Below are positions 7,931 to 44,420 of a stretch of DNA of 64,000 nucleotides, piece after piece. Source of the stretch: Lingula anatina. Taxonomy: Eukaryota > Animalia > Brachiopoda. Numbering within the stretch: the first letter of the stretch is position 1; each line of letters begins with the position of its first letter. The DNA is taken from NCBI GenBank assembly GCA_051362555.1, contig JBPQGU010000016.1, positions 6,138,001 to 6,202,000 on the forward strand, read 5' to 3'. The position numbers and the translations under genes are program-made. The notes beneath the pieces are model-generated. The model was not told the origin of the DNA. It made no database searches and saw nothing but the letters and a program-made list of their open reading frames with translations.

Positions 7931-8131
7931 GTAAGTGTATTCTTAATTTTTTTTAATACATTAGAGTAAAAATTGTGGAAAAAAAATTGTTATTTAAGCA
8001 GCAATAATGCCACAATTTAATAACGTCACAAGCATATAGTGTTGTGTAACAAAGTTTCATGTATGACTAACTTCGGCAGAGTGCTCCTCAACTTTCCGTG
8101 CACTGCAGGTTTTTGATTTTCAATGTAATCT

Positions 8132-14344: not shown

Positions 14345-14345
<1 letters not shown>

Positions 14346-14383
<38 letters not shown>

Positions 14384-23730: not shown

Positions 23731-25615
23731 AAGTGTTGGGGGTGGTCGGCTCATGTGTTGGGGGTGGTCGGCTCATGCCCTAGTTAGATTCCACTTTACC
23801 AAAATAACACGATTCAGAGCTGGGCCTCTGAGGACGTGTATTTTGACAGCGCCCCTTGCATGATTGAGAGCGACTTTTTGAGTGTGTAAGGCTTCTCGCC
23901 TTTATTATGAGGAAAGATCGTCTCTGATAGGAGGGTAGGTGTCTCACCTACATAGTATGAGATTTATAGATACCGATCTACATAGGGTGCCCTGAAAAGG
24001 GCATTTCGTGATTGGCACGATCGAGGCGTCTCGCCTTTCGAGGGAGGGGGGAGGGTGGACTGGTTGCAGAAAGCGCTTTTCGGTCAACAAGTGACCTTCA
24101 TCAGCTGCAGAGTCCGAGATAAAAAAAAAAGGAAAATTTTGGGACGTAGGGGCTGGTAAGCAAAGGTGTCTCGCCTTTGTTTAGTAAGTTTTCATCAATG
24201 GTGTCTCGCCATTGTGAATGATACGAGCCATCTCGGCTTAAAGTATCATGCTTTGTTCAGTCAGTTTTCATCAATGGTGTCTCGCCATTGTGAATGATAC
24301 GAGCCATCTCGGCTTTATAGTATCATGCTTGATCACAAGTGTCTCGCTTGTGTCAAGGTGGACGGTATGAATTGAGCGTGTGAATGGCTCAAGAGTCGGT
24401 GGTCGACTGAGGATTTGTCGAAATTGTGTCAAGTGCGAGAACGAGGCCGGGGTCTGATTGGTTGTTTTAGTTATGAGTTTTGATTGGCTGTTCTCGTGGT
24501 GCATCTTGATCCTATCTGTTTAGTTGTAGTTTGTTTGGTTTCATATTTGGCAAGGTTTTTTAACCTCGGATCAAATTTATAGTATTCTAATGCTGTGCAT
24601 ATGCGTGTTAACACTGAGCTTTCATTTGCTTAGTTTGTCTGTATAGTTTTCGGGCACCTTTTTTAATTTTGGAAGGCTTTGTCCTTGTTGCTTAGAGTAA
24701 AGTGGAGAAGGCATCTCGCCTTTTATTTGCGATGTGTGTGTCTTAAAAATAGACTGTGCCCTGTAATCGTTTAAAATTTGGTCTAAGTGGAATTGGGGCA
24801 TTTTGCTTTATCTCCAGAATGACTTTTTTCTTTATTGATTATAAATAAGTGTGGGGAGGGCATCTCGCCCTTTATTAGCGGTGTGATTTATTGCGCTCTA
24901 TTAGAACATTCAGGTTTAGCTTTTCCTGGTAGAGATGGTTGGCCCTGAAAAGGGCCGTTTTTCGAGGACGTAGGACCAGTGGCTTCTATTTTACAGTGTA
25001 GCTTTCTTTGCTGAGGTCAATCTTCGTTTCACTTTGCTGGCTAGCACGCGGCTTTTCTTCTTGTCCTTCATCGCTAGAATGAGGAGTCTCATTTGCTCCA
25101 TGATCTGGTTGTTGGCGGTCGTTGTTGCTGAGGTTCGGTTTTCTGGCGCGTATACACCGTGGATGTTGAAGTGCTCTTCCGCCCTGGATTCTCTCTCTTC
25201 TGCCTTTGCTAAGCTTTCCTTAGCTTTGTCAACGAACGCTTGCGTGTGGGCCTCGATCAGAGATTTAAGATCCGTTGCGGCCTTGTCTTGTATGTTGATC
25301 ATTGCTGCCAAGAGGACGTCGTCATCGGGGCATCCCCTGAAGTCTACACGGCATCTCACATGGTGGGCGTTGTTGCCGAGTTGTTTGAGCAGGTGGTCTG
25401 CCCAGTCAGAGCAGCCTTTCAGGTAAGTTTTTGCTCTAACGACTTCGTCGTGGTAGGGATTCCCGTTGATTCCTGGAGGGCCGGCTGTAATTGGCGCTGG
25501 TCTCTTGGGAATTCTCGCCCTGGGTGGTGCAGTGCTATGCCAGTTTTTTGATTCCATTTTTCTAGGTCCTTTCCATTCTCTAGGAGATCGTTTTCCTCTA
25601 AAACTTGTTTGTTTG
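23731..25615 (-). mobile_element. Diverged inverted partial copy of the 2575-bp hammerhead element (ORF to 3' end)
   Basis: Reverse complement aligns to the array unit with scattered substitutions and lacks one ~150-bp internal subrepeat. It ends in a tandemly duplicated 22-mer (23734-23777). Confidence 0.9.
24065..24109 (-). ncRNA. Minimal type-I hammerhead ribozyme
   Basis: Minus strand reads UGCAG-CUGAUGA-A-GGUCA-CUUGU-UGACC-GAAA-AGCGCU-UU-CUGCA. It is identical to the array copies although the flanks have diverged. Confidence 0.85.
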
Positions 25616-25638
25616 AGTGTTGGGGGTGGTGGGCTCAT
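24991..25638 (-). CDS. Basic/coiled-coil protein, diverged paralogue of the array ORF (likely start ATG at 25557, 188 aa)
   Basis: Aligns without gaps to the 209-aa array ORF with about 20 substitutions. The first ~9 codons come from across the junction at ~25615. Confidence 0.7.
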   Translation of the reverse strand: MSPPPPTLKQTSFRGKRSPREWKGPRKMESKNWHSTAPPRARIPKRPAPITAGPPGINGNPYHDEVVRAKTYLKGCSDWADHLLKQLGNNAHHVRCRVDFRGCPDDDVLLAAMINIQDKAATDLKSLIEAHTQAFVDKAKESLAKAEERESRAEEHFNIHGVYAPENRTSATTTANNQIMEQMRLLILAMKDKKKSRVLASKVKRRLTSAKKATL

Positions 25639-26084
25639 GACCTAGTTAGATTCCACTTTACCAGAATAACACGATTCAGAGCTGGGCCTCTGAGGACGTG
25701 TATTTTTACAGCGCCCCTTGCAGAGTAGACAGCGGCTCTTAGAGTGTGTTAGGCTTTTCGCCTTTATTATGAGAACCACTTGTCTTAGATAGGAAGGTAG
25801 GTGTCTCGCCTGCCTGGTATGAGATACATAGTCACTTATATATGTAGGGTGCCCTGAAAAGGACATTCCGTGCTGAGTAGAGAGCGACTCTTAGAGTGTG
25901 TTAGGCTTCTCGCCTTTATTATAGGGAAAGAGCGTCTAAATATAAGAGAGTAGGTGTCTCGCCTACTTCGTATGAGATTTATAGATACCGATCTACACAG
26001 GGGGCCCTGAAAAGGGCATTTCGTGATTGGCACAATAGAGGCGTCTCGCCTGTCGAGGGAAGGGGGAGGGTGGACTGGTTGCAG
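25616..26084 (-). mobile_element. Inverted 469-bp segment running from the ribozyme cleavage site to the element 3' end (pseudo-LTR-like)
   Basis: Reverse complement of 26694-27162; no differences seen by eye. Confidence 0.9.
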
Positions 26085-26653
26085 CCTTCCAAAATTAAAA
26101 GAGGTGCCCGAAACCTATACAGACCATCCCGGCAAATGAAAATTCAGTGTTAACACGCAAATGCACAGCATAAGAATACTAATAAATTTGATCCGAGGTT
26201 AAAAAACCTTGCCAAAAATGAAACCAAATAAACTACATCTAAACAGATAGGATCAAGATACACCACGAGAACAGCCAATCAAAACTCATAACTGAAACAA
26301 CCAATCAGATCGCGGCCTCGTTCTCGATTTGACACAATTTCAACAAATCCTCAGTCGACCTCCGACTCTTGAGCCATTCACACGCTCGATTCATACCGTC
26401 CACTTTGACACAAGCGAGACACTTGTGATCAAGCATGTTACTATAAAGCCGAGATGGCTTGTATCATTCACAATGGCGAGACACCATTGATGAAAATCAC
26501 TAAACAAAGCATGATACTTAAAAGCCGAGATGGCCCGTATCATCCACAATGGCGAGACACCATTGATGAAAACTTACTAAACAAAGGCGAGACACCTTTG
26601 CTTACCAGCCCTTACGTCCCTAAATTTTTCCTTTTTTTTCTTGAATCGGACTC

Positions 26654-26698
26654 TGCAGCTGATGAAGGTCACTTGTTGACCGAAAAGCGCTTTCTGCA
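26654..26698 (+). ncRNA. Minimal type-I hammerhead ribozyme (unit 1); predicted cleavage after 26693
   Basis: Stem I TGCAG/CTGCA; core CTGATGA plus one extra A; stem II GGTCA/TGACC; GAAA; palindromic stem III AAGCGCTT; UUU triplet. Confidence 0.85.
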
Positions 26699-27717
26699 AC
26701 CAGTCCACCCTCCCCCTTCCCTCGACAGGCGAGACGCCTCTATTGTGCCAATCACGAAATGCCCTTTTCAGGGCCCCCTGTGTAGATCGGTATCTATAAA
26801 TCTCATACGAAGTAGGCGAGACACCTACTCTCTTATATTTAGACGCTCTTTCCCTATAATAAAGGCGAGAAGCCTAACACACTCTAAGAGTCGCTCTCTA
26901 CTCAGCACGGAATGTCCTTTTCAGGGCACCCTACATATATAAGTGACTATGTATCTCATACCAGGCAGGCGAGACACCTACCTTCCTATCTAAGACAAGT
27001 GGTTCTCATAATAAAGGCGAAAAGCCTAACACACTCTAAGAGCCGCTGTCTACTCTGCAAGGGGCGCTGTAAAAATACACGTCCTCAGAGGCCCAGCTCT
27101 GAATCGTGTTATTCTGGTAAAGTGGAATCTAACTAGGTCATGAGCCCACCACCCCCAACACTTAAGCTATTTGGCCCTGGGGCCGGCCGCAATGTGGGAC
27201 TGTCCGAACCGGGAACCGTCCCTTAACACTGGTTATTTTGTAGCTAGTGTTTTGGGTACTGGCGTGACGGGGTTTTTTCTGCTTTATCAGAACACGCCTT
27301 AACCTACGGATCACAAGAAACAAAATGATCTATGTACCTAAATACACGAACATATGATAATGATAATCACATACCACGTAGGCGAGACAACTACGTTCCT
27401 ATTACTCACTAGGGAACAATAGTAATAATCAAGAAAACCTGACAAACAACCACTAAAACCAAAATTTACACTTGTCGGGGGATTCTGTGCATACATTCTT
27501 GAATAGTCAAGACATAAGACACCGGACAATGGCTTGACAATCAGCCAATCACAAAGCTCCTTAATGACACACTTTTAGAACCAACGGGAAGCACACAACA
27601 CCACATAGCTCCTTAACGTCGGTGCTCCCCTCAGCAGGGTGTATACTTAAAGCAGCACACTCTCAATGGAAGGCATAAGTCTGGCAATACAGCAATTTCT
27701 TTCACAACGCGCTCACT

Positions 27718-28347
27718 ATGTATCATCAAACAAGTATCAGAGGAAAACGATCTCCTAGGGAATGGAAAAAACCTAGAAAAATGGAATCAAAAATCTGGCA
27801 TAGCACTGCACCACCCAGGGGGAGAATCCCCAAGAGACCGGCGCCAATTACAGCCGGCCCCCCAGGAGTCAACGGCAACCCCTACCACGACGAAGTCGTC
27901 AGAACAAAAGCTTACCTGAAAGGCTGCTCTGACTGGGCGGATCACATGCTCACACAACTCAGCAACAACGCCCACCATGTCAGATGCCGTGTAGACTTCA
28001 GGGGGTGCCCTGATGACGACATCCTTCTGGCAGCAATGATCAACATACAAGACAAGGCCGCAACGGAGCTTAAATCCGCGATCGAGGCCCACACGCAAGC
28101 TTTCGTAGACAAAGCTAAGGAAAGCTTAGCAAAGGCAGAAGAGAGGGAATCCAGGGCGGAAGAGCACTTCAACATCCACGGCGTGTACACGCCAGGAAAC
28201 CAACCCTCTACTTCAACGACCACAAACAACCAGATCATGGAGCAAATGAGACTCCTCATTCTCGCCATGAAGGACAAGAAGAAGAGCCGCGTGCTAGCCA
28301 GCAAAGTGAAACGAAGACTAACCTCAGCCAAGAAAACTACACTGTAA
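27718..28347 (+). CDS. 209-aa basic/coiled-coil protein of unknown function (unit 1; second ATG at 27781)
   Basis: Intact ORF; Arg/Lys/Pro-rich N-terminus, helical central region, Lys/Arg-rich C-terminus; frame conserved in the diverged copy. Confidence 0.7.
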   Translation: MYHQTSIRGKRSPREWKKPRKMESKIWHSTAPPRGRIPKRPAPITAGPPGVNGNPYHDEVVRTKAYLKGCSDWADHMLTQLSNNAHHVRCRVDFRGCPDDDILLAAMINIQDKAATELKSAIEAHTQAFVDKAKESLAKAEERESRAEEHFNIHGVYTPGNQPSTSTTTNNQIMEQMRLLILAMKDKKKSRVLASKVKRRLTSAKKTTL

Positions 28348-29228
28348 AATAGAAGCCACTGCTTCTACGTCCTCGGGAAAAACGGCCCTTTTCAGGGCCA
28401 CCCATTTCTACCAGGAAAAGCCAAACCTGAATGTTCAAATAGAGCGCAAAAATGCAAATAAAAGGCGAGATGCCTTCCCCACACTTATTTATAATCAATA
28501 AAGAAAAGAAAAGTCATTCTGGAGATAAAGCAAAATGCCATAATCTCACTTAGACCAAATTTTAAACACTTACAGGGCACGATCGACTTATAAGACACAA
28601 ACATCGCAAATAAAAGGCGAGATGATATCTCAGTTTATTTATAAGCAACAAGGAAAAAGCCTTCCAAAATTAAAAGAGGTGCCCGAAACCTATACAGACC
28701 ATCCCGGCAAATGAAAATTCAGTGTTAACACGCAAATGCACAGCATAAGAATACTAATAAATTTGATCCGAGGTTAAAAAACCTTGCCAAAAATGAAACC
28801 AAATAAACTACATCTAAACAGATAGGATCAAGATACACCACGAGAACAGCCAATCAAAACTCATAACTGAAACAACCAATCAGATCGCGGCCTCGTTCTC
28901 GATTTGACACAATTTCAACAAATCCTCAGTCGACCTCCGACTCTTGAGCCATTCACACGCTCGATTCATACCGTCCACTTTGACACAAGCGAGACACTTG
29001 TGATCAAGCATGTTACTATAAAGCCGAGATGGCTTGTATCATTCACAATGGCGAGACACCATTGATGAAAATCACTAAACAAAGCATGATACTTAAAAGC
29101 CGAGATGGCCCGTATCATCCACAATGGCGAGACACCATTGATGAAAACTTACTAAACAAAGGCGAGACACCTTTGCTTACCAGCCCTTACGTCCCTAAAT
29201 TTTTCCTTTTTTTTCTTGAATCGGACTC

Positions 29229-29273
29229 TGCAGCTGATGAAGGTCACTTGTTGACCGAAAAGCGCTTTCTGCA
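29229..29273 (+). ncRNA. Minimal hammerhead ribozyme (unit 2)
   Basis: Identical to 26654-26698. Confidence 0.85.
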
Positions 29274-30292
29274 ACCAGTCCACCCTCCCCCTTCCCTCGA
29301 CAGGCGAGACGCCTCTATTGTGCCAATCACGAAATGCCCTTTTCAGGGCCCCCTGTGTAGATCGGTATCTATAAATCTCATACGAAGTAGGCGAGACACC
29401 TACTCTCTTATATTTAGACGCTCTTTCCCTATAATAAAGGCGAGAAGCCTAACACACTCTAAGAGTCGCTCTCTACTCAGCACGGAATGTCCTTTTCAGG
29501 GCACCCTACATATATAAGTGACTATGTATCTCATACCAGGCAGGCGAGACACCTACCTTCCTATCTAAGACAAGTGGTTCTCATAATAAAGGCGAAAAGC
29601 CTAACACACTCTAAGAGCCGCTGTCTACTCTGCAAGGGGCGCTGTAAAAATACACGTCCTCAGAGGCCCAGCTCTGAATCGTGTTATTCTGGTAAAGTGG
29701 AATCTAACTAGGTCATGAGCCCACCACCCCCAACACTTAAGCTATTTGGCCCTGGGGCCGGCCGCAATGTGGGACTGTCCGAACCGGGAACCGTCCCTTA
29801 ACACTGGTTATTTTGTAGCTAGTGTTTTGGGTACTGGCGTGACGGGTTTTTTTCTGCTTTATCAGAACACGCCTTAACCTACGGATCACAAGAAACAAAA
29901 TGATCTATGTACCTAAATACACGAACATATGATAATGATAATCACATACCACGTAGGCGAGACAACTACGTTCCTATTACTCACTAGGGAACAATAGTAA
30001 TAATCAAGAAAACCTGACAAACAACCACTAAAACCAAAATTTACACTTGTCGGGGGATTCTGTGCATACATTCTTGAATAGTCAAGACATAAGACACCGG
30101 ACAATGGCTTGACAATCAGCCAATCACAAAGCTCCTTAATGACACACTTTTAGAACCAACGGGAAGCACACAACACCACATAGCTCCTTAACGTCGGTGC
30201 TCCCCTCAGCAGGGTGTATACTTAAAGCAGCACACTCTCAATGGAAGGCATAAGTCTGGCAATACAGCAATTTCTTTCACAACGCGCTCACT

Positions 30293-30922
30293 ATGTATCA
30301 TCAAACAAGTATCAGAGGAAAACGATCTCCTAGGGAATGGAAAAAACCTAGAAAAATGGAATCAAAAAACTGGCATAGCACTGCACCACCCAGGGGGAGA
30401 ATCCCCAAGAGACCGGCGCCAATTACAGCCGGCCCCCCAGGAGTCAACGGCAACCCCTACCACGACGAAGTCGTCAGAACAAAAGCTTACCTGAAAGGCT
30501 GCTCTGACTGGGCGGATCACATGCTCACACAACTCAGCAACAACGCCCACCATGTCAGATGCCGTGTAGACTTCAGGGGGTGCCCTGATGACGACATCCT
30601 TCTGGCAGCAATGATCAACATACAAGACAAGGCCGCAACGGAGCTTAAATCCGCGATCGAGGCCCACACGCAAGCTTTCGTAGACAAAGCTAAGGAAAGC
30701 TTAGCAAAGGCAGAAGAGAGGGAATCCAGGGCGGAAGAGCACTTCAACATCCACGGCGTGTACACGCCAGGAAACCAACCCTCTACTTCAACGACCACAA
30801 ACAACCAGATCATGGAGCAAATGAGACTCCTCATTCTCGCCATGAAGGACAAGAAGAAGAGCCGCGTGCTAGCCAGCAAAGTGAAACGAAGACTAACCTC
30901 AGCCAAGAAAACTACACTGTAA
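30293..30922 (+). CDS. 209-aa basic/coiled-coil protein (unit 2)
   Basis: Repeat copy; differs from unit 1 by one residue (N versus I at position 26). Confidence 0.7.
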   Translation: MYHQTSIRGKRSPREWKKPRKMESKNWHSTAPPRGRIPKRPAPITAGPPGVNGNPYHDEVVRTKAYLKGCSDWADHMLTQLSNNAHHVRCRVDFRGCPDDDILLAAMINIQDKAATELKSAIEAHTQAFVDKAKESLAKAEERESRAEEHFNIHGVYTPGNQPSTSTTTNNQIMEQMRLLILAMKDKKKSRVLASKVKRRLTSAKKTTL

Positions 30923-31803
30923 AATAGAAGCCACTGCTTCTACGTCCTCGGGAAAAACGGCCCTTTTCAGGGCCACCCATTTCTACCAGGAAAAGCCAAA
31001 CCTGAATGTTCAAATAGAGCGCAAAAATGCAAATAAAAGGCGAGATGCCTTCCCCACACTTATTTATAATCAATAAAGAAAAGAAAAGTCATTCTGGAGA
31101 TAAAGCAAAATGCCATAATCTCACTTAGACCAAATTTTAAACACTTACAGGGCACGATCGACTTATAAGACACAAACATCGCAAATAAAAGGCGAGATGA
31201 TATCTCAGTTTATTTATAAGCAACAAGGAAAAAGCCTTCCAAAATTAAAAGAGGTGCCCGAAACCTATACAGACCATCCCGGCAAATGAAAATTCAGTGT
31301 TAACACGCAAATGCACAGCATAAGAATACTAATAAATTTGATCCGAGGTTAAAAAACCTTGCCAAAAATGAAACCAAATAAACTACATCTAAACAGATAG
31401 GATCAAGATACACCACGAGAACAGCCAATCAAAACTCATAACTGAAACAACCAATCAGATCGCGGCCTCGTTCTCGATTTGACACAATTTCAACAAATCC
31501 TCAGTCGACCTCCGACTCTTGAGCCATTCACACGCTCGATTCATACCGTCCACTTTGACACAAGCGAGACACTTGTGATCAAGCATGTTACTATAAAGCC
31601 GAGATGGCTTGTATCATTCACAATGGCGAGACACCATTGATGAAAATCACTAAACAAAGCATGATACTTAAAAGCCGAGATGGCCCGTATCATCCACAAT
31701 GGCGAGACACCATTGATGAAAACTTACTAAACAAAGGCGAGACACCTTTGCTTACCAGCCCTTACGTCCCTAAATTTTTCCTTTTTTTTCTTGAATCGGA
31801 CTC

Positions 31804-31848
31804 TGCAGCTGATGAAGGTCACTTGTTGACCGAAAAGCGCTTTCTGCA
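31804..31848 (+). ncRNA. Minimal hammerhead ribozyme (unit 3)
   Basis: Identical to 26654-26698. Confidence 0.85.
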
Positions 31849-32867
31849 ACCAGTCCACCCTCCCCCTTCCCTCGACAGGCGAGACGCCTCTATTGTGCCA
31901 ATCACGAAATGCCCTTTTCAGGGCCCCCTGTGTAGATCGGTATCTATAAATCTCATACGAAGTAGGCGAGACACCTACTCTCTTATATTTAGACGCTCTT
32001 TCCCTATAATAAAGGCGAGAAGCCTAACACACTCTAAGAGTCGCTCTCTACTCAGCACGGAATGTCCTTTTCAGGGCACCCTACATATATAAGTGACTAT
32101 GTATCTCATACCAGGCAGGCGAGACACCTACCTTCCTATCTAAGACAAGTGGTTCTCATAATAAAGGCGAAAAGCCTAACACACTCTAAGAGCCGCTGTC
32201 TACTCTGCAAGGGGCGCTGTAAAAATACACGTCCTCAGAGGCCCAGCTCTGAATCGTGTTATTCTGGTAAAGTGGAATCTAACTAGGTCATGAGCCCACC
32301 ACCCCCAACACTTAAGCTATTTGGCCCTGGGGCCGGCCGCAATGTGGGACTGTCCGAACCGGGAACCGTCCCTTAACACTGGTTATTTTGTAGCTAGTGT
32401 TTTGGGTACTGGCGTGACGGGGTTTTTTCTGCTTTATCAGAACACGCCTTAACCTACGGATCACAAGAAACAAAATGATCTATGTACCTAAATACACGAA
32501 CATATGATAATGATAATCACATACCACGTAGGCGAGACAACTACGTTCCTATTACTCACTAGGGAACAATAGTAATAATCAAGAAAACCTGACAAACAAC
32601 CACTAAAACCAAAATTTACACTTGTCGGGGGATTCTGTGCATACATTCTTGAATAGTCAAGACATAAGACACCGGACAATGGCTTGACAATCAGCCAATC
32701 ACAAAGCTCCTTAATGACACACTTTTAGAACCAACGGGAAGCACACAACACCACATAGCTCCTTAACGTCGGTGCTCCCCTCAGCAGGGTGTATACTTAA
32801 AGCAGCACACTCTCAATGGAAGGCATAAGTCTGGCAATACAGCAATTTCTTTCACAACGCGCTCACT

Positions 32868-33497
32868 ATGTATCATCAAACAAGTATCAGAGGAAAACGA
32901 TCTCCTAGGGAATGGAAAAAACCTAGAAAAATGGAATCAAAAAACTGGCATAGCACTGCACCACCCAGGGGGAGAATCCCCAAGAGACCGGCGCCAATTA
33001 CAGCCGGCCCCCCAGGAGTCAACGGCAACCCCTACCACGACGAAGTCGTCAGAACAAAAGCTTACCTGAAAGGCTGCTCTGACTGGGCGGATCACATGCT
33101 CACACAACTCAGCAACAACGCCCACCATGTCAGATGCCGTGTAGACTTCAGGGGGTGCCCTGATGACGACATCCTTCTGGCAGCAATGATCAACATACAA
33201 GACAAGGCCGCAACGGAGCTTAAATCCGCGATCGAGGCCCACACGCAAGCTTTCGTAGACAAAGCTAAGGAAAGCTTAGCAAAGGCAGAAGAGAGGGAAT
33301 CCAGGGCGGAAGAGCACTTCAACATCCACGGCGTGTACACGCCAGGAAACCAACCCTCTACTTCAACGACCACAAACAACCAGATCATGGAGCAAATGAG
33401 ACTCCTCATTCTCGCCATGAAGGACAAGAAGAAGAGCCGCGTGCTAGCCAGCAAAGTGAAACGAAGACTAACCTCAGCCAAGAAAACTACACTGTAA
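32868..33497 (+). CDS. 209-aa basic/coiled-coil protein (unit 3)
   Basis: Repeat copy. Confidence 0.7.
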   Translation: MYHQTSIRGKRSPREWKKPRKMESKNWHSTAPPRGRIPKRPAPITAGPPGVNGNPYHDEVVRTKAYLKGCSDWADHMLTQLSNNAHHVRCRVDFRGCPDDDILLAAMINIQDKAATELKSAIEAHTQAFVDKAKESLAKAEERESRAEEHFNIHGVYTPGNQPSTSTTTNNQIMEQMRLLILAMKDKKKSRVLASKVKRRLTSAKKTTL

Positions 33498-34378
33498 AAT
33501 AGAAGCCACTGCTTCTACGTCCTCGGGAAAAACGGCCCTTTTCAGGGCCACCCATTTCTACCAGGAAAAGCCAAACCTGAATGTTCAAATAGAGCGCAAA
33601 AATGCAAATAAAAGGCGAGATGCCTTCCCCACACTTATTTATAATCAATAAAGAAAAGAAAAGTCATTCTGGAGATAAAGCAAAATGCCATAATCTCACT
33701 TAGACCAAATTTTAAACACTTACAGGGCACGATCGACTTATAAGACACAAACATCGCAAATAAAAGGCGAGATGATATCTCAGTTTATTTATAAGCAACA
33801 AGGAAAAAGCCTTCCAAAATTAAAAGAGGTGCCCGAAACCTATACAGACCATCCCGGCAAATGAAAATTCAGTGTTAACACGCAAATGCACAGCATAAGA
33901 ATACTAATAAATTTGATCCGAGGTTAAAAAACCTTGCCAAAAATGAAACCAAATAAACTACATCTAAACAGATAGGATCAAGATACACCACGAGAACAGC
34001 CAATCAAAACTCATAACTGAAACAACCAATCAGATCGCGGCCTCGTTCTCGATTTGACACAATTTCAACAAATCCTCAGTCGACCTCCGACTCTTGAGCC
34101 ATTCACACGCTCGATTCATACCGTCCACTTTGACACAAGCGAGACACTTGTGATCAAGCATGTTACTATAAAGCCGAGATGGCTTGTATCATTCACAATG
34201 GCGAGACACCATTGATGAAAATCACTAAACAAAGCATGATACTTAAAAGCCGAGATGGCCCGTATCATCCACAATGGCGAGACACCATTGATGAAAACTT
34301 ACTAAACAAAGGCGAGACACCTTTGCTTACCAGCCCTTACGTCCCTAAATTTTTCCTTTTTTTTCTTGAATCGGACTC

Positions 34379-34423
34379 TGCAGCTGATGAAGGTCACTTG
34401 TTGACCGAAAAGCGCTTTCTGCA
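34379..34423 (+). ncRNA. Minimal hammerhead ribozyme (unit 4)
   Basis: Identical to 26654-26698. Confidence 0.85.
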
Positions 34424-35442
34424 ACCAGTCCACCCTCCCCCTTCCCTCGACAGGCGAGACGCCTCTATTGTGCCAATCACGAAATGCCCTTTTCAGGGCC
34501 CCCTGTGTAGATCGGTATCTATAAATCTCATACGAAGTAGGCGAGACACCTACTCTCTTATATTTAGACGCTCTTTCCCTATAATAAAGGCGAGAAGCCT
34601 AACACACTCTAAGAGTCGCTCTCTACTCAGCACGGAATGTCCTTTTCAGGGCACCCTACATATATAAGTGACTATGTATCTCATACCAGGCAGGCGAGAC
34701 ACCTACCTTCCTATCTAAGACAAGTGGTTCTCATAATAAAGGCGAAAAGCCTAACACACTCTAAGAGCCGCTGTCTACTCTGCAAGGGGCGCTGTAAAAA
34801 TACACGTCCTCAGAGGCCCAGCTCTGAATCGTGTTATTCTGGTAAAGTGGAATCTAACTAGGTCATGAGCCCACCACCCCCAACACTTAAGCTATTTGGC
34901 CCTGGGGCCGGCCGCAATGTGGGACTGTCCGAACCGGGAACCGTCCCTTAACACTGGTTATTTTGTAGCTAGTGTTTTGGGTACTGGCGTGACGGGGTTT
35001 TTTCTGCTTTATCAGAACACGCCTTAACCTACGGATCACAAGAAACAAAATGATCTATGTACCTAAATACACGAACATATGATAATGATAATCACATACC
35101 ACGTAGGCGAGACAACTACGTTCCTATTACTCACTAGGGAACAATAGTAATAATCAAGAAAACCTGACAAACAACCACTAAAACCAAAATTTACACTTGT
35201 CGGGGGATTCTGTGCATACATTCTTGAATAGTCAAGACATAAGACACCGGACAATGGCTTGACAATCAGCCAATCACAAAGCTCCTTAATGACACACTTT
35301 TAGAACCAACGGGAAGCACACAACACCACATAGCTCCTTAACGTCGGTGCTCCCCTCAGCAGGGTGTATACTTAAAGCAGCACACTCTCAATGGAAGGCA
35401 TAAGTCTGGCAATACAGCAATTTCTTTCACAACGCGCTCACT

Positions 35443-36072
35443 ATGTATCATCAAACAAGTATCAGAGGAAAACGATCTCCTAGGGAATGGAAAAAACCTA
35501 GAAAAATGGAATCAAAAAACTGGCATAGCACTGCACCACCCAGGGGGAGAATCCCCAAGAGACCGGCGCCAATTACAGCCGGCCCCCCAGGAGTCAACGG
35601 CAACCCCTACCACGACGAAGTCGTCAGAACAAAAGCTTACCTGAAAGGCTGCTCTGACTGGGCGGATCACATGCTCACACAACTCAGCAACAACGCCCAC
35701 CATGTCAGATGCCGTGTAGACTTCAGGGGGTGCCCTGATGACGACATCCTTCTGGCAGCAATGATCAACATACAAGACAAGGCCGCAACGGAGCTTAAAT
35801 CCGCGATCGAGGCCCACACGCAAGCTTTCGTAGACAAAGCTAAGGAAAGCTTAGCAAAGGCAGAAGAGAGGGAATCCAGGGCGGAAGAGCACTTCAACAT
35901 CCACGGCGTGTACACGCCAGGAAACCAACCCTCTACTTCAACGACCACAAACAACCAGATCATGGAGCAAATGAGACTCCTCATTCTCGCCATGAAGGAC
36001 AAGAAGAAGAGCCGCGTGCTAGCCAGCAAAGTGAAACGAAGACTAACCTCAGCCAAGAAAACTACACTGTAA
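35443..36072 (+). CDS. 209-aa basic/coiled-coil protein (unit 4)
   Basis: Repeat copy. Confidence 0.7.
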   Translation: MYHQTSIRGKRSPREWKKPRKMESKNWHSTAPPRGRIPKRPAPITAGPPGVNGNPYHDEVVRTKAYLKGCSDWADHMLTQLSNNAHHVRCRVDFRGCPDDDILLAAMINIQDKAATELKSAIEAHTQAFVDKAKESLAKAEERESRAEEHFNIHGVYTPGNQPSTSTTTNNQIMEQMRLLILAMKDKKKSRVLASKVKRRLTSAKKTTL

Positions 36073-36953
36073 AATAGAAGCCACTGCTTCTACGTCCTCG
36101 GGAAAAACGGCCCTTTTCAGGGCCACCCATTTCTACCAGGAAAAGCCAAACCTGAATGTTCAAATAGAGCGCAAAAATGCAAATAAAAGGCGAGATGCCT
36201 TCCCCACACTTATTTATAATCAATAAAGAAAAGAAAAGTCATTCTGGAGATAAAGCAAAATGCCATAATCTCACTTAGACCAAATTTTAAACACTTACAG
36301 GGCACGATCGACTTATAAGACACAAACATCGCAAATAAAAGGCGAGATGATATCTCAGTTTATTTATAAGCAACAAGGAAAAAGCCTTCCAAAATTAAAA
36401 GAGGTGCCCGAAACCTATACAGACCATCCCGGCAAATGAAAATTCAGTGTTAACACGCAAATGCACAGCATAAGAATACTAATAAATTTGATCCGAGGTT
36501 AAAAAACCTTGCCAAAAATGAAACCAAATAAACTACATCTAAACAGATAGGATCAAGATACACCACGAGAACAGCCAATCAAAACTCATAACTGAAACAA
36601 CCAATCAGATCGCGGCCTCGTTCTCGATTTGACACAATTTCAACAAATCCTCAGTCGACCTCCGACTCTTGAGCCATTCACACGCTCGATTCATACCGTC
36701 CACTTTGACACAAGCGAGACACTTGTGATCAAGCATGTTACTATAAAGCCGAGATGGCTTGTATCATTCACAATGGCGAGACACCATTGATGAAAATCAC
36801 TAAACAAAGCATGATACTTAAAAGCCGAGATGGCCCGTATCATCCACAATGGCGAGACACCATTGATGAAAACTTACTAAACAAAGGCGAGACACCTTTG
36901 CTTACCAGCCCTTACGTCCCTAAATTTTTCCTTTTTTTTCTTGAATCGGACTC

Positions 36954-36998
36954 TGCAGCTGATGAAGGTCACTTGTTGACCGAAAAGCGCTTTCTGCA
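36954..36998 (+). ncRNA. Minimal hammerhead ribozyme (unit 5)
   Basis: Identical to 26654-26698. Confidence 0.85.
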
Positions 36999-38017
36999 AC
37001 CAGTCCACCCTCCCCCTTCCCTCGACAGGCGAGACGCCTCTATTGTGCCAATCACGAAATGCCCTTTTCAGGGCCCCCTGTGTAGATCGGTATCTATAAA
37101 TCTCATACGAAGTAGGCGAGACACCTACTCTCTTATATTTAGACGCTCTTTCCCTATAATAAAGGCGAGAAGCCTAACACACTCTAAGAGTCGCTCTCTA
37201 CTCAGCACGGAATGTCCTTTTCAGGGCACCCTACATATATAAGTGACTATGTATCTCATACCAGGCAGGCGAGACACCTACCTTCCTATCTAAGACAAGT
37301 GGTTCTCATAATAAAGGCGAAAAGCCTAACACACTCTAAGAGCCGCTGTCTACTCTGCAAGGGGCGCTGTAAAAATACACGTCCTCAGAGGCCCAGCTCT
37401 GAATCGTGTTATTCTGGTAAAGTGGAATCTAACTAGGTCATGAGCCCACCACCCCCAACACTTAAGCTATTTGGCCCTGGGGCCGGCCGCAATGTGGGAC
37501 TGTCCGAACCGGGAACCGTCCCTTAACACTGGTTATTTTGTAGCTAGTGTTTTGGGTACTGGCGTGACGGGGTTTTTTCTGCTTTATCAGAACACGCCTT
37601 AACCTACGGATCACAAGAAACAAAATGATCTATGTACCTAAATACACGAACATATGATAATGATAATCACATACCACGTAGGCGAGACAACTACGTTCCT
37701 ATTACTCACTAGGGAACAATAGTAATAATCAAGAAAACCTGACAAACAACCACTAAAACCAAAATTTACACTTGTCGGGGGATTCTGTGCATACATTCTT
37801 GAATAGTCAAGACATAAGACACCGGACAATGGCTTGACAATCAGCCAATCACAAAGCTCCTTAATGACACACTTTTAGAACCAACGGGAAGCACACAACA
37901 CCACATAGCTCCTTAACGTCGGTGCTCCCCTCAGCAGGGTGTATACTTAAAGCAGCACACTCTCAATGGAAGGCATAAGTCTGGCAATACAGCAATTTCT
38001 TTCACAACGCGCTCACT

Positions 38018-38647
38018 ATGTATCATCAAACAAGTATCAGAGGAAAACGATCTCCTAGGGAATGGAAAAAACCTAGAAAAATGGAATCAAAAAACTGGCA
38101 TAGCACTGCACCACCCAGGGGGAGAATCCCCAAGAGACCGGCGCCAATTACAGCCGGCCCCCCAGGAGTCAACGGCAACCCCTACCACGACGAAGTCGTC
38201 AGAACAAAAGCTTACCTGAAAGGCTGCTCTGACTGGGCGGATCACATGCTCACACAACTCAGCAACAACGCCCACCATGTCAGATGCCGTGTAGACTTCA
38301 GGGGGTGCCCTGATGACGACATCCTTCTGGCAGCAATGATCAACATACAAGACAAGGCCGCAACGGAGCTTAAATCCGCGATCGAGGCCCACACGCAAGC
38401 TTTCGTAGACAAAGCTAAGGAAAGCTTAGCAAAGGCAGAAGAGAGGGAATCCAGGGCGGAAGAGCACTTCAACATCCACGGCGTGTACACGCCAGGAAAC
38501 CAACCCTCTACTTCAACGACCACAAACAACCAGATCATGGAGCAAATGAGACTCCTCATTCTCGCCATGAAGGACAAGAAGAAGAGCCGCGTGCTAGCCA
38601 GCAAAGTGAAACGAAGACTAACCTCAGCCAAGAAAACTACACTGTAA
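38018..38647 (+). CDS. 209-aa basic/coiled-coil protein (unit 5)
   Basis: Repeat copy. Confidence 0.7.
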   Translation: MYHQTSIRGKRSPREWKKPRKMESKNWHSTAPPRGRIPKRPAPITAGPPGVNGNPYHDEVVRTKAYLKGCSDWADHMLTQLSNNAHHVRCRVDFRGCPDDDILLAAMINIQDKAATELKSAIEAHTQAFVDKAKESLAKAEERESRAEEHFNIHGVYTPGNQPSTSTTTNNQIMEQMRLLILAMKDKKKSRVLASKVKRRLTSAKKTTL

Positions 38648-39528
38648 AATAGAAGCCACTGCTTCTACGTCCTCGGGAAAAACGGCCCTTTTCAGGGCCA
38701 CCCATTTCTACCAGGAAAAGCCAAACCTGAATGTTCAAATAGAGCGCAAAAATGCAAATAAAAGGCGAGATGCCTTCCCCACACTTATTTATAATCAATA
38801 AAGAAAAGAAAAGTCATTCTGGAGATAAAGCAAAATGCCATAATCTCACTTAGACCAAATTTTAAACACTTACAGGGCACGATCGACTTATAAGACACAA
38901 ACATCGCAAATAAAAGGCGAGATGATATCTCAGTTTATTTATAAGCAACAAGGAAAAAGCCTTCCAAAATTAAAAGAGGTGCCCGAAACCTATACAGACC
39001 ATCCCGGCAAATGAAAATTCAGTGTTAACACGCAAATGCACAGCATAAGAATACTAATAAATTTGATCCGAGGTTAAAAAACCTTGCCAAAAATGAAACC
39101 AAATAAACTACATCTAAACAGATAGGATCAAGATACACCACGAGAACAGCCAATCAAAACTCATAACTGAAACAACCAATCAGATCGCGGCCTCGTTCTC
39201 GATTTGACACAATTTCAACAAATCCTCAGTCGACCTCCGACTCTTGAGCCATTCACACGCTCGATTCATACCGTCCACTTTGACACAAGCGAGACACTTG
39301 TGATCAAGCATGTTACTATAAAGCCGAGATGGCTTGTATCATTCACAATGGCGAGACACCATTGATGAAAATCACTAAACAAAGCATGATACTTAAAAGC
39401 CGAGATGGCCCGTATCATCCACAATGGCGAGACACCATTGATGAAAACTTACTAAACAAAGGCGAGACACCTTTGCTTACCAGCCCTTACGTCCCTAAAT
39501 TTTTCCTTTTTTTTCTTGAATCGGACTC

Positions 39529-39573
39529 TGCAGCTGATGAAGGTCACTTGTTGACCGAAAAGCGCTTTCTGCA
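39529..39573 (+). ncRNA. Minimal hammerhead ribozyme (unit 6)
   Basis: Identical to 26654-26698. Confidence 0.85.
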
Positions 39574-40592
39574 ACCAGTCCACCCTCCCCCTTCCCTCGA
39601 CAGGCGAGACGCCTCTATTGTGCCAATCACGAAATGCCCTTTTCAGGGCCCCCTGTGTAGATCGGTATCTATAAATCTCATACGAAGTAGGCGAGACACC
39701 TACTCTCTTATATTTAGACGCTCTTTCCCTATAATAAAGGCGAGAAGCCTAACACACTCTAAGAGTCGCTCTCTACTCAGCACGGAATGTCCTTTTCAGG
39801 GCACCCTACATATATAAGTGACTATGTATCTCATACCAGGCAGGCGAGACACCTACCTTCCTATCTAAGACAAGTGGTTCTCATAATAAAGGCGAAAAGC
39901 CTAACACACTCTAAGAGCCGCTGTCTACTCTGCAAGGGGCGCTGTAAAAATACACGTCCTCAGAGGCCCAGCTCTGAATCGTGTTATTCTGGTAAAGTGG
40001 AATCTAACTAGGTCATGAGCCCACCACCCCCAACACTTAAGCTATTTGGCCCTGGGGCCGGCCGCAATGTGGGACTGTCCGAACCGGGAACCGTCCCTTA
40101 ACACTGGTTATTTTGTAGCTAGTGTTTTGGGTACTGGCGTGACGGGGTTTTTTCTGCTTTATCAGAACACGCCTTAACCTACGGATCACAAGAAACAAAA
40201 TGATCTATGTACCTAAATACACGAACATATGATAATGATAATCACATACCACGTAGGCGAGACAACTACGTTCCTATTACTCACTAGGGAACAATAGTAA
40301 TAATCAAGAAAACCTGACAAACAACCACTAAAACCAAAATTTACACTTGTCGGGGGATTCTGTGCATACATTCTTGAATAGTCAAGACATAAGACACCGG
40401 ACAATGGCTTGACAATCAGCCAATCACAAAGCTCCTTAATGACACACTTTTAGAACCAACGGGAAGCACACAACACCACATAGCTCCTTAACGTCGGTGC
40501 TCCCCTCAGCAGGGTGTATACTTAAAGCAGCACACTCTCAATGGAAGGCATAAGTCTGGCAATACAGCAATTTCTTTCACAACGCGCTCACT

Positions 40593-41222
40593 ATGTATCA
40601 TCAAACAAGTATCAGAGGAAAACGATCTCCTAGGGAATGGAAAAAACCTAGAAAAATGGAATCAAAAAACTGGCATAGCACTGCACCACCCAGGGGGAGA
40701 ATCCCCAAGAGACCGGCGCCAATTACAGCCGGCCCCCCAGGAGTCAACGGCAACCCCTACCACGACGAAGTCGTCAGAACAAAAGCTTACCTGAAAGGCT
40801 GCTCTGACTGGGCGGATCACATGCTCACACAACTCAGCAACAACGCCCACCATGTCAGATGCCGTGTAGACTTCAGGGGGTGCCCTGATGACGACATCCT
40901 TCTGGCAGCAATGATCAACATACAAGACAAGGCCGCAACGGAGCTTAAATCCGCGATCGAGGCCCACACGCAAGCTTTCGTAGACAAAGCTAAGGAAAGC
41001 TTAGCAAAGGCAGAAGAGAGGGAATCCAGGGCGGAAGAGCACTTCAACATCCACGGCGTGTACACGCCAGGAAACCAACCCTCTACTTCAACGACCACAA
41101 ACAACCAGATCATGGAGCAAATGAGACTCCTCATTCTCGCCATGAAGGACAAGAAGAAGAGCCGCGTGCTAGCCAGCAAAGTGAAACGAAGACTAACCTC
41201 AGCCAAGAAAACTACACTGTAA
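40593..41222 (+). CDS. 209-aa basic/coiled-coil protein (unit 6)
   Basis: Repeat copy. Confidence 0.7.
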   Translation: MYHQTSIRGKRSPREWKKPRKMESKNWHSTAPPRGRIPKRPAPITAGPPGVNGNPYHDEVVRTKAYLKGCSDWADHMLTQLSNNAHHVRCRVDFRGCPDDDILLAAMINIQDKAATELKSAIEAHTQAFVDKAKESLAKAEERESRAEEHFNIHGVYTPGNQPSTSTTTNNQIMEQMRLLILAMKDKKKSRVLASKVKRRLTSAKKTTL

Positions 41223-42103
41223 AATAGAAGCCACTGCTTCTACGTCCTCGGGAAAAACGGCCCTTTTCAGGGCCACCCATTTCTACCAGGAAAAGCCAAA
41301 CCTGAATGTTCAAATAGAGCGCAAAAATGCAAATAAAAGGCGAGATGCCTTCCCCACACTTATTTATAATCAATAAAGAAAAGAAAAGTCATTCTGGAGA
41401 TAAAGCAAAATGCCATAATCTCACTTAGACCAAATTTTAAACACTTACAGGGCACGATCGACTTATAAGACACAAACATCGCAAATAAAAGGCGAGATGA
41501 TATCTCAGTTTATTTATAAGCAACAAGGAAAAAGCCTTCCAAAATTAAAAGAGGTGCCCGAAACCTATACAGACCATCCCGGCAAATGAAAATTCAGTGT
41601 TAACACGCAAATGCACAGCATAAGAATACTAATAAATTTGATCCGAGGTTAAAAAACCTTGCCAAAAATGAAACCAAATAAACTACATCTAAACAGATAG
41701 GATCAAGATACACCACGAGAACAGCCAATCAAAACTCATAACTGAAACAACCAATCAGATCGCGGCCTCGTTCTCGATTTGACACAATTTCAACAAATCC
41801 TCAGTCGACCTCCGACTCTTGAGCCATTCACACGCTCGATTCATACCGTCCACTTTGACACAAGCGAGACACTTGTGATCAAGCATGTTACTATAAAGCC
41901 GAGATGGCTTGTATCATTCACAATGGCGAGACACCATTGATGAAAATCACTAAACAAAGCATGATACTTAAAAGCCGAGATGGCCCGTATCATCCACAAT
42001 GGCGAGACACCATTGATGAAAACTTACTAAACAAAGGCGAGACACCTTTGCTTACCAGCCCTTACGTCCCTAAATTTTTCCTTTTTTTTCTTGAATCGGA
42101 CTC

Positions 42104-42148
42104 TGCAGCTGATGAAGGTCACTTGTTGACCGAAAAGCGCTTTCTGCA
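42104..42148 (+). ncRNA. Minimal hammerhead ribozyme (unit 7)
   Basis: Identical to 26654-26698. Confidence 0.85.
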
Positions 42149-43167
42149 ACCAGTCCACCCTCCCCCTTCCCTCGACAGGCGAGACGCCTCTATTGTGCCA
42201 ATCACGAAATGCCCTTTTCAGGGCCCCCTGTGTAGATCGGTATCTATAAATCTCATACGAAGTAGGCGAGACACCTACTCTCTTATATTTAGACGCTCTT
42301 TCCCTATAATAAAGGCGAGAAGCCTAACACACTCTAAGAGTCGCTCTCTACTCAGCACGGAATGTCCTTTTCAGGGCACCCTACATATATAAGTGACTAT
42401 GTATCTCATACCAGGCAGGCGAGACACCTACCTTCCTATCTAAGACAAGTGGTTCTCATAATAAAGGCGAAAAGCCTAACACACTCTAAGAGCCGCTGTC
42501 TACTCTGCAAGGGGCGCTGTAAAAATACACGTCCTCAGAGGCCCAGCTCTGAATCGTGTTATTCTGGTAAAGTGGAATCTAACTAGGTCATGAGCCCACC
42601 ACCCCCAACACTTAAGCTATTTGGCCCTGGGGCCGGCCGCAATGTGGGACTGTCCGAACCGGGAACCGTCCCTTAACACTGGTTATTTTGTAGCTAGTGT
42701 TTTGGGTACTGGCGTGACGGGGTTTTTTCTGCTTCATCAGAACACGCCTTAACCTACGGATCACAAGAAACAAAATGATCTATGTACCTAAATACACGAA
42801 CATATGATAATGATAATCACATACCACGTAGGCGAGACAACTACGTTCCTATTACTCACTAGGGAACAATAGTAATAATCAAGAAAACCTGACAAACAAC
42901 CACTAAAACCAAAATTTACACTTGTCGGGGGATTCTGTGCATACATTCTTGAATAGTCAAGACATAAGACACCGGACAATGGCTTGACAATCAGCCAATC
43001 ACAAAGCTCCTTAATGACACACTTTTAGAACCAACGGGAAGCACACAACACCACATAGCTCCTTAACGTCGGTGCTCCCCTCAGCAGGGTGTATACTTAA
43101 AGCAGCACACTCTCAATGGAAGGCATAAGTCTGGCAATACAGCAATTTCTTTCACAACGCGCTCACT

Positions 43168-43796
43168 ATGTATCATCAAACAAGTATCAGAGGAAAACGA
43201 TCTCCTAGGGAATGGAAAAAACCTAGAAAAATGGAATCAAAAAACTGGCATAGCACTGCACCACCCAGGGGGAGAATCCCCAAGAGACCGGCGCCAATTA
43301 CAGCCGGCCCCCCAGGAGTCAACGGCAACCCCTACCACGACGAAGTCGTCAGAACAAAAGCTTACCTGAAAGGCTGCTCTGACTGGGCGGATCACATGCT
43401 CACACAACTCAGCAACAACGCCCACCATGTCAGATGCCGTGTAGACTTCAGGGGGTGCCCTGATGACGACATCCTTCTGGCAGCAATGATCAACATACAA
43501 GACAAGGCCGCAACGGAGCTTAATCCGCGATCGAGGCCCACACGCAAGCTTTCGTAGACAAAGCTAAGGAAAGCTTAGCAAAGGCAGAAGAGAGGGAATC
43601 CAGGGCGGAAGAGCACTTCAACATCCACGGCGTGTACACGCCAGGAAACCAACCCTCTACTTCAACGACCACAAACAACCAGATCATGGAGCAAATGAGA
43701 CTCCTCATTCTCGCCATGAAGGACAAGAAGAAGAGCCGCGTGCTAGCCAGCAAAGTGAAACGAAGACTAACCTCAGCCAAGAAAACTACACTGTAA
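43168..43796 (+). pseudogene. Frameshifted copy of the 209-aa ORF (unit 7)
   Basis: CTTAATCC instead of CTTAAATCC at ~43522, a 1-nt deletion; either a mutation or a sequencing error. Confidence 0.7.
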
Positions 43797-43904
43797 AATA
43801 GAAGCCACTGCTTCTACGTCCTCGGGAAAAACGGCCCTTTTCAGGGGTATTTTTGTGAATTTATGAAATTTTTGTAAGTTCATTGTTAAATGGTGAATGA
43901 CAGC

Positions 43905-44420
43905 AGTCAGAAGGTTCACTGGTCTGATAGTTTGATGATGCCAACATCCAATGGTTCAAAAGGTTCAGTAGTCAGAAGGTTCATTGGTCTGATATTGTTT
44001 AATGATGCCAAGATCCAATGGTTTAAAAGGTTCAATAGTCAGAAGGTTCATTGGTCTGATAGTTAGATGATGCCAAGATCCAATGGTTTAAAAGGTTCAA
44101 TAATCAGAAGGTTCATTGGTCTGATAGTTTGATGATGCCAAGATCCAATGGTTTAAAAGGTTCAATAGTCAGAAGGTTCATTGGTCTGATAGTTTGATGA
44201 TGCCAAGATCCAATGGTTCAAAAGGTTTTATAATAGTCAGAAGGTTCATTGGTCTGATAGTTTGATGATGCCAAGATCCAATGGTTCAAAAGGTTTTATA
44301 ATAGTCAGAAGGTTCATTGGTCTGATAGTTTGAAGATGTAAATGTCCAGCTGTTCCAAAGGTGTGCTAGTCAGAAGGTTCACTTGCATGAGGTTTCATTG
44401 GTTCAGAGGTTGTATAGTCT
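43905..44420 (+). repeat. ~64-66 bp minisatellite, about 7 copies
   Basis: Repeated AGTCAGAAGGTTCATTGGTCTGATAGTTTGATGATGCCAAGATCCAATGGTT. Confidence 0.9.

Follow-up and report, generated by a model that had tools for sequence, protein, structure and literature searches.

The 64,000-nucleotide stretch of Lingula anatina DNA analyzed here (assembly GCA_051362555.1, contig JBPQGU010000016.1, positions 6,138,001 to 6,202,000 of the forward strand; hereafter the window, whose numbering is used throughout) contains a tandem insertion of 2575-bp units, each of which carries a minimal hammerhead ribozyme and one open reading frame (ORF). We consider it probable that this element is a passenger of Penelope-like elements (PLEs) that lacks a reverse transcriptase (RT), was likely pasted into its site by the enzyme of a PLE and brings along a gene of its own that is maintained by selection, with a message predicted to end in the style of a histone mRNA. 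An earlier interpretation of the same nucleotides, made without database searches and hereafter called the sequence-only reading, had described the element as a candidate coding retrozyme or minimal Penelope-like system.

The array consists of 6.9 head-to-tail laps of the unit, all belonging to one subfamily (A), with the copy number taken from the assembly. Only four differing sites in total are found among the seven units when unit 3 is used as the reference, each of them private to one unit; for two of the four, which are located within or next to homopolymer runs, an assembly error is possible. The hammerhead core CUGAUGA begins at 26659 and recurs with every further 2575 bp to give seven copies on the plus strand, and one more copy is present at 24104 on the minus strand. 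The claim of near-identical 2575-bp units with one minimal type I hammerhead each is thus borne out in 7/7 units. The longest stop-free stretch in the six frames of the unit amounts to 222 aa, and therefore no frame can hold an RT; a [YF]xDD motif is absent from this stretch and Pfam gave no match, in agreement with the sequence-only reading, which had seen neither RT nor endonuclease motifs. The unit is a young tandem element without RT or nuclease. The single intact ORF of 188–209 aa previously assigned to each unit is found, as a frame of 209 aa, in six units, the seventh being frameshifted by a 1-nt deletion at 43521. A 162-aa ORF spanning the hammerhead (26454–26942) is interrupted by stops in the second subfamily (B), which is represented in the left arm of the insertion, and was hence rejected.

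Comparison of the ORFs of subfamilies A and B over 202 codons reveals 29 synonymous and 21 non-synonymous differences, corresponding to a ratio of non-synonymous to synonymous substitution rates (dN/dS) of 0.18 (p 8e-9). Because of this ratio relative to a 91%-identical sister copy we count the ORF as a real gene, and judged by its substitution pattern it is under purifying selection. This upholds the earlier protein-coding claim, and no longer or RT-fused relative was found. The non-coding parts of A and B differ at 7.2% of 1226 sites as compared to 21.6% at synonymous sites; hence they appear to be constrained as well, for which mosaic ancestry is an alternative cause. A lone homologue of the protein, P0001 (170 aa, on a 1420-bp contig, 29–32% identity, E 2.2e-6), was obtained from 1.84 billion representatives searched. 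The initial protein search had returned nothing at E<=0.001 among 87 candidates, and a profile built from three sequences recovered P0001 only among 7811 candidates. The same profile gave no match in a weak search against 7989 longer proteins (378–2000 aa), no Pfam family matched the ORF protein at E<=5, PDB sequences showed no match to it, the ESM Atlas held no usable match for either the ORF protein or P0001, and 0/95 candidates matched in a protein scan of viral contigs. Since no longer form was found among the 1.84 billion representatives or in the weak 378–2000 aa search, the possibility raised before that the ORF is the truncated N-terminus of a larger protein is without support. Structural modeling reached a mean predicted local distance difference test score of 58 from the single sequence and of 64 with an alignment; the former model is poor, and the latter shows, at modest confidence, a long helical hairpin with floppy basic ends. 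On the RNA level, the ORF (30293–30922) folds more stably than shuffles, with z-scores of -4.4 and -3.0 in two tests, and the region 3' of it (30923–31554) is likewise more stable than shuffles in the sense orientation (z -4.3; antisense -0.2). Whether this latter region is an old copy of the end repeat was also considered, and with alignment scores of 32 and 31 against shuffle maxima of 33 and 30 such a relationship is undetectable.

Behind the ORF, the Rfam model of the histone 3' stem-loop (RF00032) scores 36.6 bits (cut-off 34) in 6/6 complete units, a feature that had escaped the sequence-only reading, as had the CGAGA hairpins treated below. The stem-loop begins 36 nt past the stop codon, is directly followed by ACCCA and, 7 nt beyond ACCCA, by a purine-rich stretch that is kept in subfamilies A and B and that, viewed against the spacing expected of a histone downstream element, is a candidate for such an element. 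All 16 nt of the stem-loop are identical in both subfamilies. A strict stem-loop motif occurs in 6/3000 shuffles, and three loose copies, as present in the unit, in 0/3000. Upstream, a CCAAT motif and a TATA-like box precede the AUG of the ORF by 173 nt and 76 nt, respectively, and 12 AUGs lie between the ribozyme cut and the ORF. Since the stem-loop, the purine-rich stretch, the CCAAT and TATA-like boxes and the 12 AUGs after the cut occur together, the ORF looks, in its anatomy, like a histone-style transcription unit of its own, and we regard such a separate unit as likely. The element may hence produce its protein via the host pathway for histone messages. Translation from a cut or circular 2575-nt monomer, as envisaged in the sequence-only reading, is doubtful in view of the same features, and a circle is probably not the template from which the ORF is translated. 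Among cellular mRNAs, those of histones are described as the sole ones ending in such a stem-loop (PMC5066620, PMC9745837). No work linking histone stem-loops to PLEs was found by title or abstract start, with subscription papers, Repbase and Dfam outside the scope of this search. Two further CCAAT boxes are located at 26277–26310 (and in steps of +2575), about 100 nt upstream of the common end module, and could represent a second promoter for a hammerhead-bearing RNA.

The left side of the insertion is formed by the arm that had been described as an inverted partial copy. While its inverted orientation is confirmed, it is actually composed of three pieces, which are, in order from the left flank, 22 nt of subfamily B, 1857 nt of subfamily B and 469 nt of subfamily A, and which all begin at the same terminus (27161–27163 in unit terms). 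The simplest account of this arrangement is one event in which two related RNAs were copied with repeated restarts at a fixed site; the alternative would be two insertions that occurred separately. PLEs typically form partial tandems accompanied by an inverted 5'-truncated copy, and non-autonomous multicopy head-to-tail forms of them have been described as well (PMC8557442). The 469-nt piece stops at the predicted hammerhead cut, within a 2-nt overlap with the array; a chance fit of this junction would concern about 3/2575 positions, and the cut site was named from the fold of the ribozyme. As a single junction, this suggests, indirectly, that the hammerhead cuts in vivo. The subfamily B template, in contrast to the one that ended at the cut, was copied through the hammerhead uncut. 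From the insertion ends we infer a PLE-type anatomy and an RT supplied in trans, both of which the sequence-only reading had proposed, and the pseudo-long terminal repeats (pLTRs) of PLEs suffice to mobilise an unrelated gene in trans (PMC3846280). On the right, the insertion ends 2 nt inside the stem of the ORF stem-loop, and intermediates of histone mRNA decay end 2–4 nt into the stem (PMC5066620); this match was noticed post hoc and is explained equally well by hairpin priming or a later deletion.

Features of the insertion and their positions in the window. Positions of repeated features are those of one unit.
Feature	Position	Strand	Basis or remark
Head-to-tail array, 6.9 x 2575 bp, subfamily A	26083..43846	+	alignment
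Four clustered hairpins with a CGAGACA loop, upstream of the hammerhead	26405..26647	+	folding; depth step and loose ends near 28980
Minimal type I hammerhead, every 2575 bp	26654..26698	+	cleavage predicted after U17, at 26693/26694
End segment resembling a pLTR; histone-type hairpin, CGAGA hairpins and AATAAA in each of two 152/153-bp sub-repeats	26694..27162	+	fixed 3' terminus 27161-27163
Second histone-type hairpin; loop UUUC, altered basal pair, not followed by a purine-rich element	26760..26775	+	motif; no Rfam match
Third histone-type hairpin; loop UUUC, U-A as basal pair, not followed by a purine-rich element	26913..26928	+	motif; no Rfam match
Candidate ORF promoter: CCAAT 27545, TATA-like TATACTTAAA 27642	27545..27651	+	motif match only
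Intronless orphan ORF, 209 aa, isoelectric point 10.0; ends basic, residues 57-154 predicted to form a helical hairpin	27718..28347	+	copies at 30293, 32868, 35443, 38018, 40593; frameshifted at 43168
Histone 3' stem-loop 28384-28399, ACCCA, purine-rich stretch 28412-28420 (candidate downstream element)	28384..28420	+	RF00032
Outer end of left arm: 22-nt repeat of the 3' terminus, subfamily B, beside A/T-rich flank	23731..23754	-	TRF 23733-23777, 2 x 22 nt; alignment
5'-truncated inverted subfamily B copy, 1857 nt, 91% identical; it contains the ORF body, the stem-loop, hairpins and an uncut hammerhead, and its end repeat lacks one 153-bp sub-repeat	23755..25611	-	alignment
Stem-loop of histone type after the B ORF; its 16-nt hairpin has the same sequence as that of the array	24916..24961	-	RF00032 32 bits, under cut-off 34, E 2.6e-5
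Subfamily B ORF, 215 aa; first codons supplied by the adjoining subfamily A piece	24991..25638	-	alignment
Inverted 469-nt piece, 100% identical to 26694-27162, predicted cut to 3' terminus	25616..26084	-	alignment; 2-nt overlap with array
Right end of insertion, 2 nt inside the 3' strand of the ORF stem-loop, against T-rich flank	43834..43846	+	single junction

The hammerhead itself is built from a 5-bp stem I (UGCAG/CUGCA), an extra A after the core, a stem II of 5 bp and a stem III that consists of the palindrome AAGCGCUU. Its nucleotide 17 is a U, and the cut is therefore predicted at the position given in the table. A custom hammerhead descriptor finds one match on the plus strand of the unit and none on the minus strand, whereas 2/3000 dinucleotide shuffles of the unit match and the 43.9 kb of the window outside the element hold none, and the motif differs at 0/50 positions between subfamilies A and B. 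An Rfam search for hammerheads returned no match at E<=1 in the window or at E<=10 in 2.3 kb of one unit, a blank that is to be expected because the motif lacks tertiary loops. In terms of predicted energies, the active dimer (-31.5 kcal/mol) lies 1.8 kcal/mol above the respective minimum (-33.3), as compared to 4.8 kcal/mol for the active monomer (-6.0 versus -10.8), which favors the dimer-type hammerhead assumed in the sequence-only reading. The hammerhead of the Anolis PLE cuts only with the help of its protein (PMC11167929), and minimal hammerheads ligate poorly (PMC7229834). A scan of metagenome DNA with a strict hammerhead pattern gave 0 matches; a loose pattern gave 10 viral and 89 metagenome matches, 0/89 with both stems, and none of these loci resembled the unit or its protein.

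Upstream of the ribozyme and in the end segment, the unit is rich in hairpins with a CGAGA loop. Each unit has ten sense-strand copies of the heptamer GGCGAGA (shuffle mean 0.1, maximum 2), as compared to a single copy elsewhere in the window, and at 12 places per unit the motif or a near variant folds into or beside a local hairpin loop. The stems of these hairpins vary between copies yet remain paired, with a covariation score that was reached by 0/500 shuffles, a figure that is an upper bound because the 15 hairpin rows were hand-chosen and anchored on the loop motif, which inflates pair counts. A fixed loop on variable stems resembles a protein-binding site, and candidate binders would be the protein of the element or the RT of its helper. 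The segment that the element has in common with many other genomic sequences begins at about 26405, as judged from a depth step and loose ends near 28980. In sample X19, a high-depth contig joins 29194 back to 28980 and thereby forms a tandem of about 218 bp of the four-hairpin cluster without the hammerhead.

The unit is present in nine DNA datasets from three studies, one of them possibly the source sample, and contigs span 29–30 of its 30 bins in four DNA runs. Besides its three uses in the left arm, the fixed 3' end is probably used at other loci: in sample X9, at least six contigs depart from the unit at this terminus (29736) and continue into dissimilar flanks (agreement 0.47), and at least two contigs of sample X7 do so at 29739. 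Summed contig depth, which is not a copy number, amounts to 6625 and 7090 in the hammerhead and terminus bins of X7 (ORF 362–993) and to 12318 and 8593 in those of X9 (ORF 86–327). These peaks are a hint that many relatives have the end module only, among which the helper might be sought. At least three subfamilies retain the ORF, namely A, B (91%) and one that is about 82% alike and present at high depth in X19. The word share of subfamily A varies from 0.99 to 0.03 among the DNA samples X1–X9 and X19, which all bear one species label and the last of which is dominated by the ~82%-alike subfamily. One X19 contig matches at the ORF start (to 30330) and again at the stem-loop (from 30955, 21 letters only) and is unlike the unit in between, possibly a diverged ORF with a kept hairpin.

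Taken together, we propose the following course of events. Each unit carries a PLE-type end module made up of CGAGA hairpins, the minimal hammerhead and the segment up to the fixed terminus. It is very likely that a helper PLE protein nicked A/T-rich DNA and copied RNA from both target strands, with the left arm as the product of three successive starts at the fixed terminus, the last piece of which (469 nt) would be a run-off at the hammerhead cut. The hammerhead would probably cut slowly and as a dimer, such that one template was cut and the rest was read through. The 6.9 laps would originate from copying of a multimer or circle, or from a later expansion of at least 1.9 units on the DNA level. 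The ORF, which by its substitution pattern is under purifying selection and which ends in the histone stem-loop, would be expressed from a short transcript that starts from the CCAAT/TATA boxes and is cut behind the hairpin by SLBP and U7, a step on which our own opinion is evenly divided. As a consequence, the protein would be tied to S phase or oocytes, and its message would be in competition with the read-through RNA on which copying depends. Lacking a purine-rich element, the two hairpins of the end repeat would bind SLBP and stay uncut. Tentatively, the basic coiled-coil protein may bind its own RNA at the CGAGA hairpins and serve as an ORF1-like packaging or folding aid that gains access to the helper enzyme. 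A more far-reaching version, which we regard as rather unlikely, would see in the element a PLE satellite whose RNA-binding protein, made via SLBP and U7 in step with DNA replication, coats the CGAGA hairpins, activates the weak hammerhead and secures the RT of the helper, and in which one arm of this insertion was primed by an RNA end that U7 had processed and that had been partly trimmed.

Several observations weigh against this proposal, in addition to the hand-chosen hairpin rows mentioned above. In the lowest-energy dimer U17 is able to pair with A14, minimal PLE hammerheads cut poorly in vitro (PMC4209133), and the hairpin cluster together with the hammerhead folds no better than shuffles in the sense orientation (z -1.05; antisense z -3.35). 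RNA reads of the element are scarce and were found in 4/4 runs (104, 26, 9 and 71 reads), most of them 90–99% alike or partial and in both directions; the 104 reads belong to run X10 (12.4 million reads) and cover 28/30 bins of the unit. Almost all X10 read pairs of the ORF have the first mate on the plus strand, which would be antisense if the library is conventionally stranded. No pile of RNA read ends was observed at the cut or at the hairpin in the four runs, where depth at the hairpin is below 2; poly(A) selection, applied to two of these libraries, would remove messages that end in a stem-loop. An index of sequencing runs named no RNA run as containing the unit, which does not bear on its expression. 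Among the ORF variants listed from the DNA contigs, 5/10 are synonymous. Foldseek gave no match for the protein model at E<=0.001, and the best VIA-align hit (Z 8.8, root mean square deviation 3.5, 103 aligned) is generic for helical hairpins. The right end of the insertion, a single junction, lies off the fixed terminus, which a later deletion would also explain. A target-site duplication is absent, the longest word common to the flanks being 6 nt and located away from the junctions, although such duplications are not universal in PLEs (PMC3846280). The helper PLE, finally, is itself deduced from the insertion ends.

Other explanations have to be weighed against the same evidence. The closest of them, to which we assign a small but real chance, retains the RT-less PLE passenger and takes the hairpin as a cis signal of the PLE end that serves RT docking or RNA stability, with the ORF mRNA polyadenylated at AATAAA and no role for U7. 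Two of the three histone-type hairpins indeed belong to the end repeat and have no stop codon anywhere near, AATAAA is found about 60 and about 100 nt behind the ORF hairpin, and the right end, which stops inside the hairpin, fits internal priming at a stem-loop as in the Anolis PLE (PMC11167929); the purine-rich stretch, moreover, is a candidate element for pairing with the host U7. The post-stop copy, however, is the only one that has full flanks, exceeds the Rfam cut-off and possesses a purine-rich stretch kept in A and B, which speaks against this reading. That the unit instead derives by deletion from a larger multi-gene PLE of the Athena, Coprina or Terminon kind, or is the 3' module of one, with the ORF as a coiled-coil accessory gene or old N-terminal domain, appears less probable again. 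Terminons combine coiled-coil ORFs, hammerheads and head-to-tail arrays (PMC6431247), the protein of the Anolis PLE dimerises via a long helix at its N-terminus (PMC11167929), the ORF protein is modeled as a long helical hairpin, and a 2759-nt contig of X7 harbors an 81%-alike ORF piece in a context that could not be read. Against such an origin stand the stop codon and stem-loop, both identical in the two subfamilies, the failure of the search of 1.84 billion representatives and of the weak 378–2000 aa search to uncover a longer relative, the short length of the sole homologue and the interstitial site without telomeric repeat.

A coding retrozyme, in which monomers are cut out, circularised, translated and copied round and round, would account for the single hammerhead per unit, for 6.9 laps with private differences only and for the template that ended at the cut, and a circle-template model has been proposed for PLE tandems (PMC4209133). 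We nevertheless hold it to be improbable: the hammerhead of the B template was uncut and copying proceeded through it, a rod is missing, the ORF is preceded by 12 AUGs and has promoter-like and 3' signals of its own, and minimal hammerheads ligate poorly (PMC7229834). A circular RT template is possible under the passenger explanation as well, to which the retrozyme adds only translation from the circle, and the label retrozyme given in the sequence-only reading fails on the 2575-bp size and the coding content. The delta-like design suggested there is not retained either. Only one strand carries a hammerhead, and a rod is rejected because the fold of the unit RNA is 55% paired with 61 hairpin loops, 447/706 pairs spanning less than 60 nt, and because A (869) and U (544) are unequal in number. 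Capture of a host gene between PLE ends on a single occasion, such that selection reflects a host function, has a precedent in the NRPS gene between pLTRs of Adineta (PMC3846280) and is very improbable here, as at least three subfamilies keep the ORF in a mix that differs between samples and no host family matches it in Pfam, the ESM Atlas or the protein searches.

The remainder of the window contains further repetitive features. At 54452–58593 on the plus strand, there are gag-like ORFs, a 623-aa ORF with RT, RNase H and Dam-like domains and an overlapping integrase-like ORF, a layout that we take to be that of a DIRS-type tyrosine-recombinase retrotransposon. Two identical tRNA-Thr(TGT) genes (54780–54855 and 54971–55046, minus strand) lie in a duplicated block that interrupts its gag-like region and may be a tRNA-derived insertion. 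A dispersed repeat family with a tandem core of 159–162 bp, 75–95% alike, occurs at 1719–3680, 8127–8956, 11606–12064, 13948–16374 and 58991–59854, and a 65-bp tandem repeat of 7.2 copies (43905–44381) begins 59 bp past the right end of the array.

If correct, a histone stem-loop behind a selected non-histone gene would extend the SLBP/U7 pathway and provide a transposon with a cell-cycle timer, and an RT-less PLE passenger with a selected protein would constitute a satellite-like tier between retrozymes and full PLEs. The rare junction at the predicted hammerhead cut bears on the question of in vivo cutting by minimal PLE hammerheads, as reads ending at such a site were not found for the Anolis PLE (PMC11167929). 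When compared to replication-dependent histone genes, which employ the RF00032 stem-loop, SLBP and the U7 small nuclear ribonucleoprotein, the element shares the intronless ORF, the stem-loop 36 nt past the stop, ACCCA, the purine-rich stretch, the CCAAT and TATA-like boxes and the tandem array, whereas its protein, for which Pfam has no match, is not a histone and is encoded inside a mobile element. With hepatitis delta-like agents, as these are generally characterized, it has in common that a ribozyme is combined with a single basic, helical protein about 200 aa long; in contrast to them it is a genomic DNA repeat with a ribozyme on one strand, without a rod and without a profile or Rfam ribozyme match. 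Animal non-LTR (long terminal repeat) retrozymes (PMC7229834; bioRxiv 10.64898/2026.07.22.740005) likewise consist of tandem units with one type I hammerhead each and a presumed PLE helper, and yet they measure 170–400 nt as opposed to 2575 bp (51–972 bp in a vertebrate survey that searched repeat periods only up to 1000) and are described as non-coding, whereas the present unit is coding, bears a minimal rather than a canonical ribozyme and has circles only as a prediction. Terminons or Athena PLEs (PMC6431247), likened here by description and not by sequence, share the hammerhead near the 3' end, the coiled-coil ORF and the head-to-tail arrays, and differ from our element, which has no RT, no telomeric repeat and an interstitial site. 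The minimal hammerheads in metazoan PLE pLTRs (PMC4209133) agree in the 5-bp stem I, the extra nucleotide before stem II, the opening G-C pair of stem II, the palindromic stem III and the predicted dimer, and are set apart by U17 and by the lack of an RT ORF between the ribozymes in our case. Closest in architecture are non-autonomous or cargo PLEs such as the Adineta Pen3a pLTR carrying an NRPS (non-ribosomal peptide synthetase) gene (PMC3846280) and Chlamys elements such as MRC1 (PMC8557442), with which the insertion has in common the end repeat, the inverted 5'-truncated arm, the head-to-tail copies, a microhomology junction and the lack of an RT; instead of a one-off host gene, however, it carries an orphan gene that is selected across subfamilies and has a histone-type 3' end. 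Hence, with respect to the literature covered, transport of cargo by PLEs is already known, and what is new is the combination of a dedicated, selected orphan gene with a histone-type 3' end.

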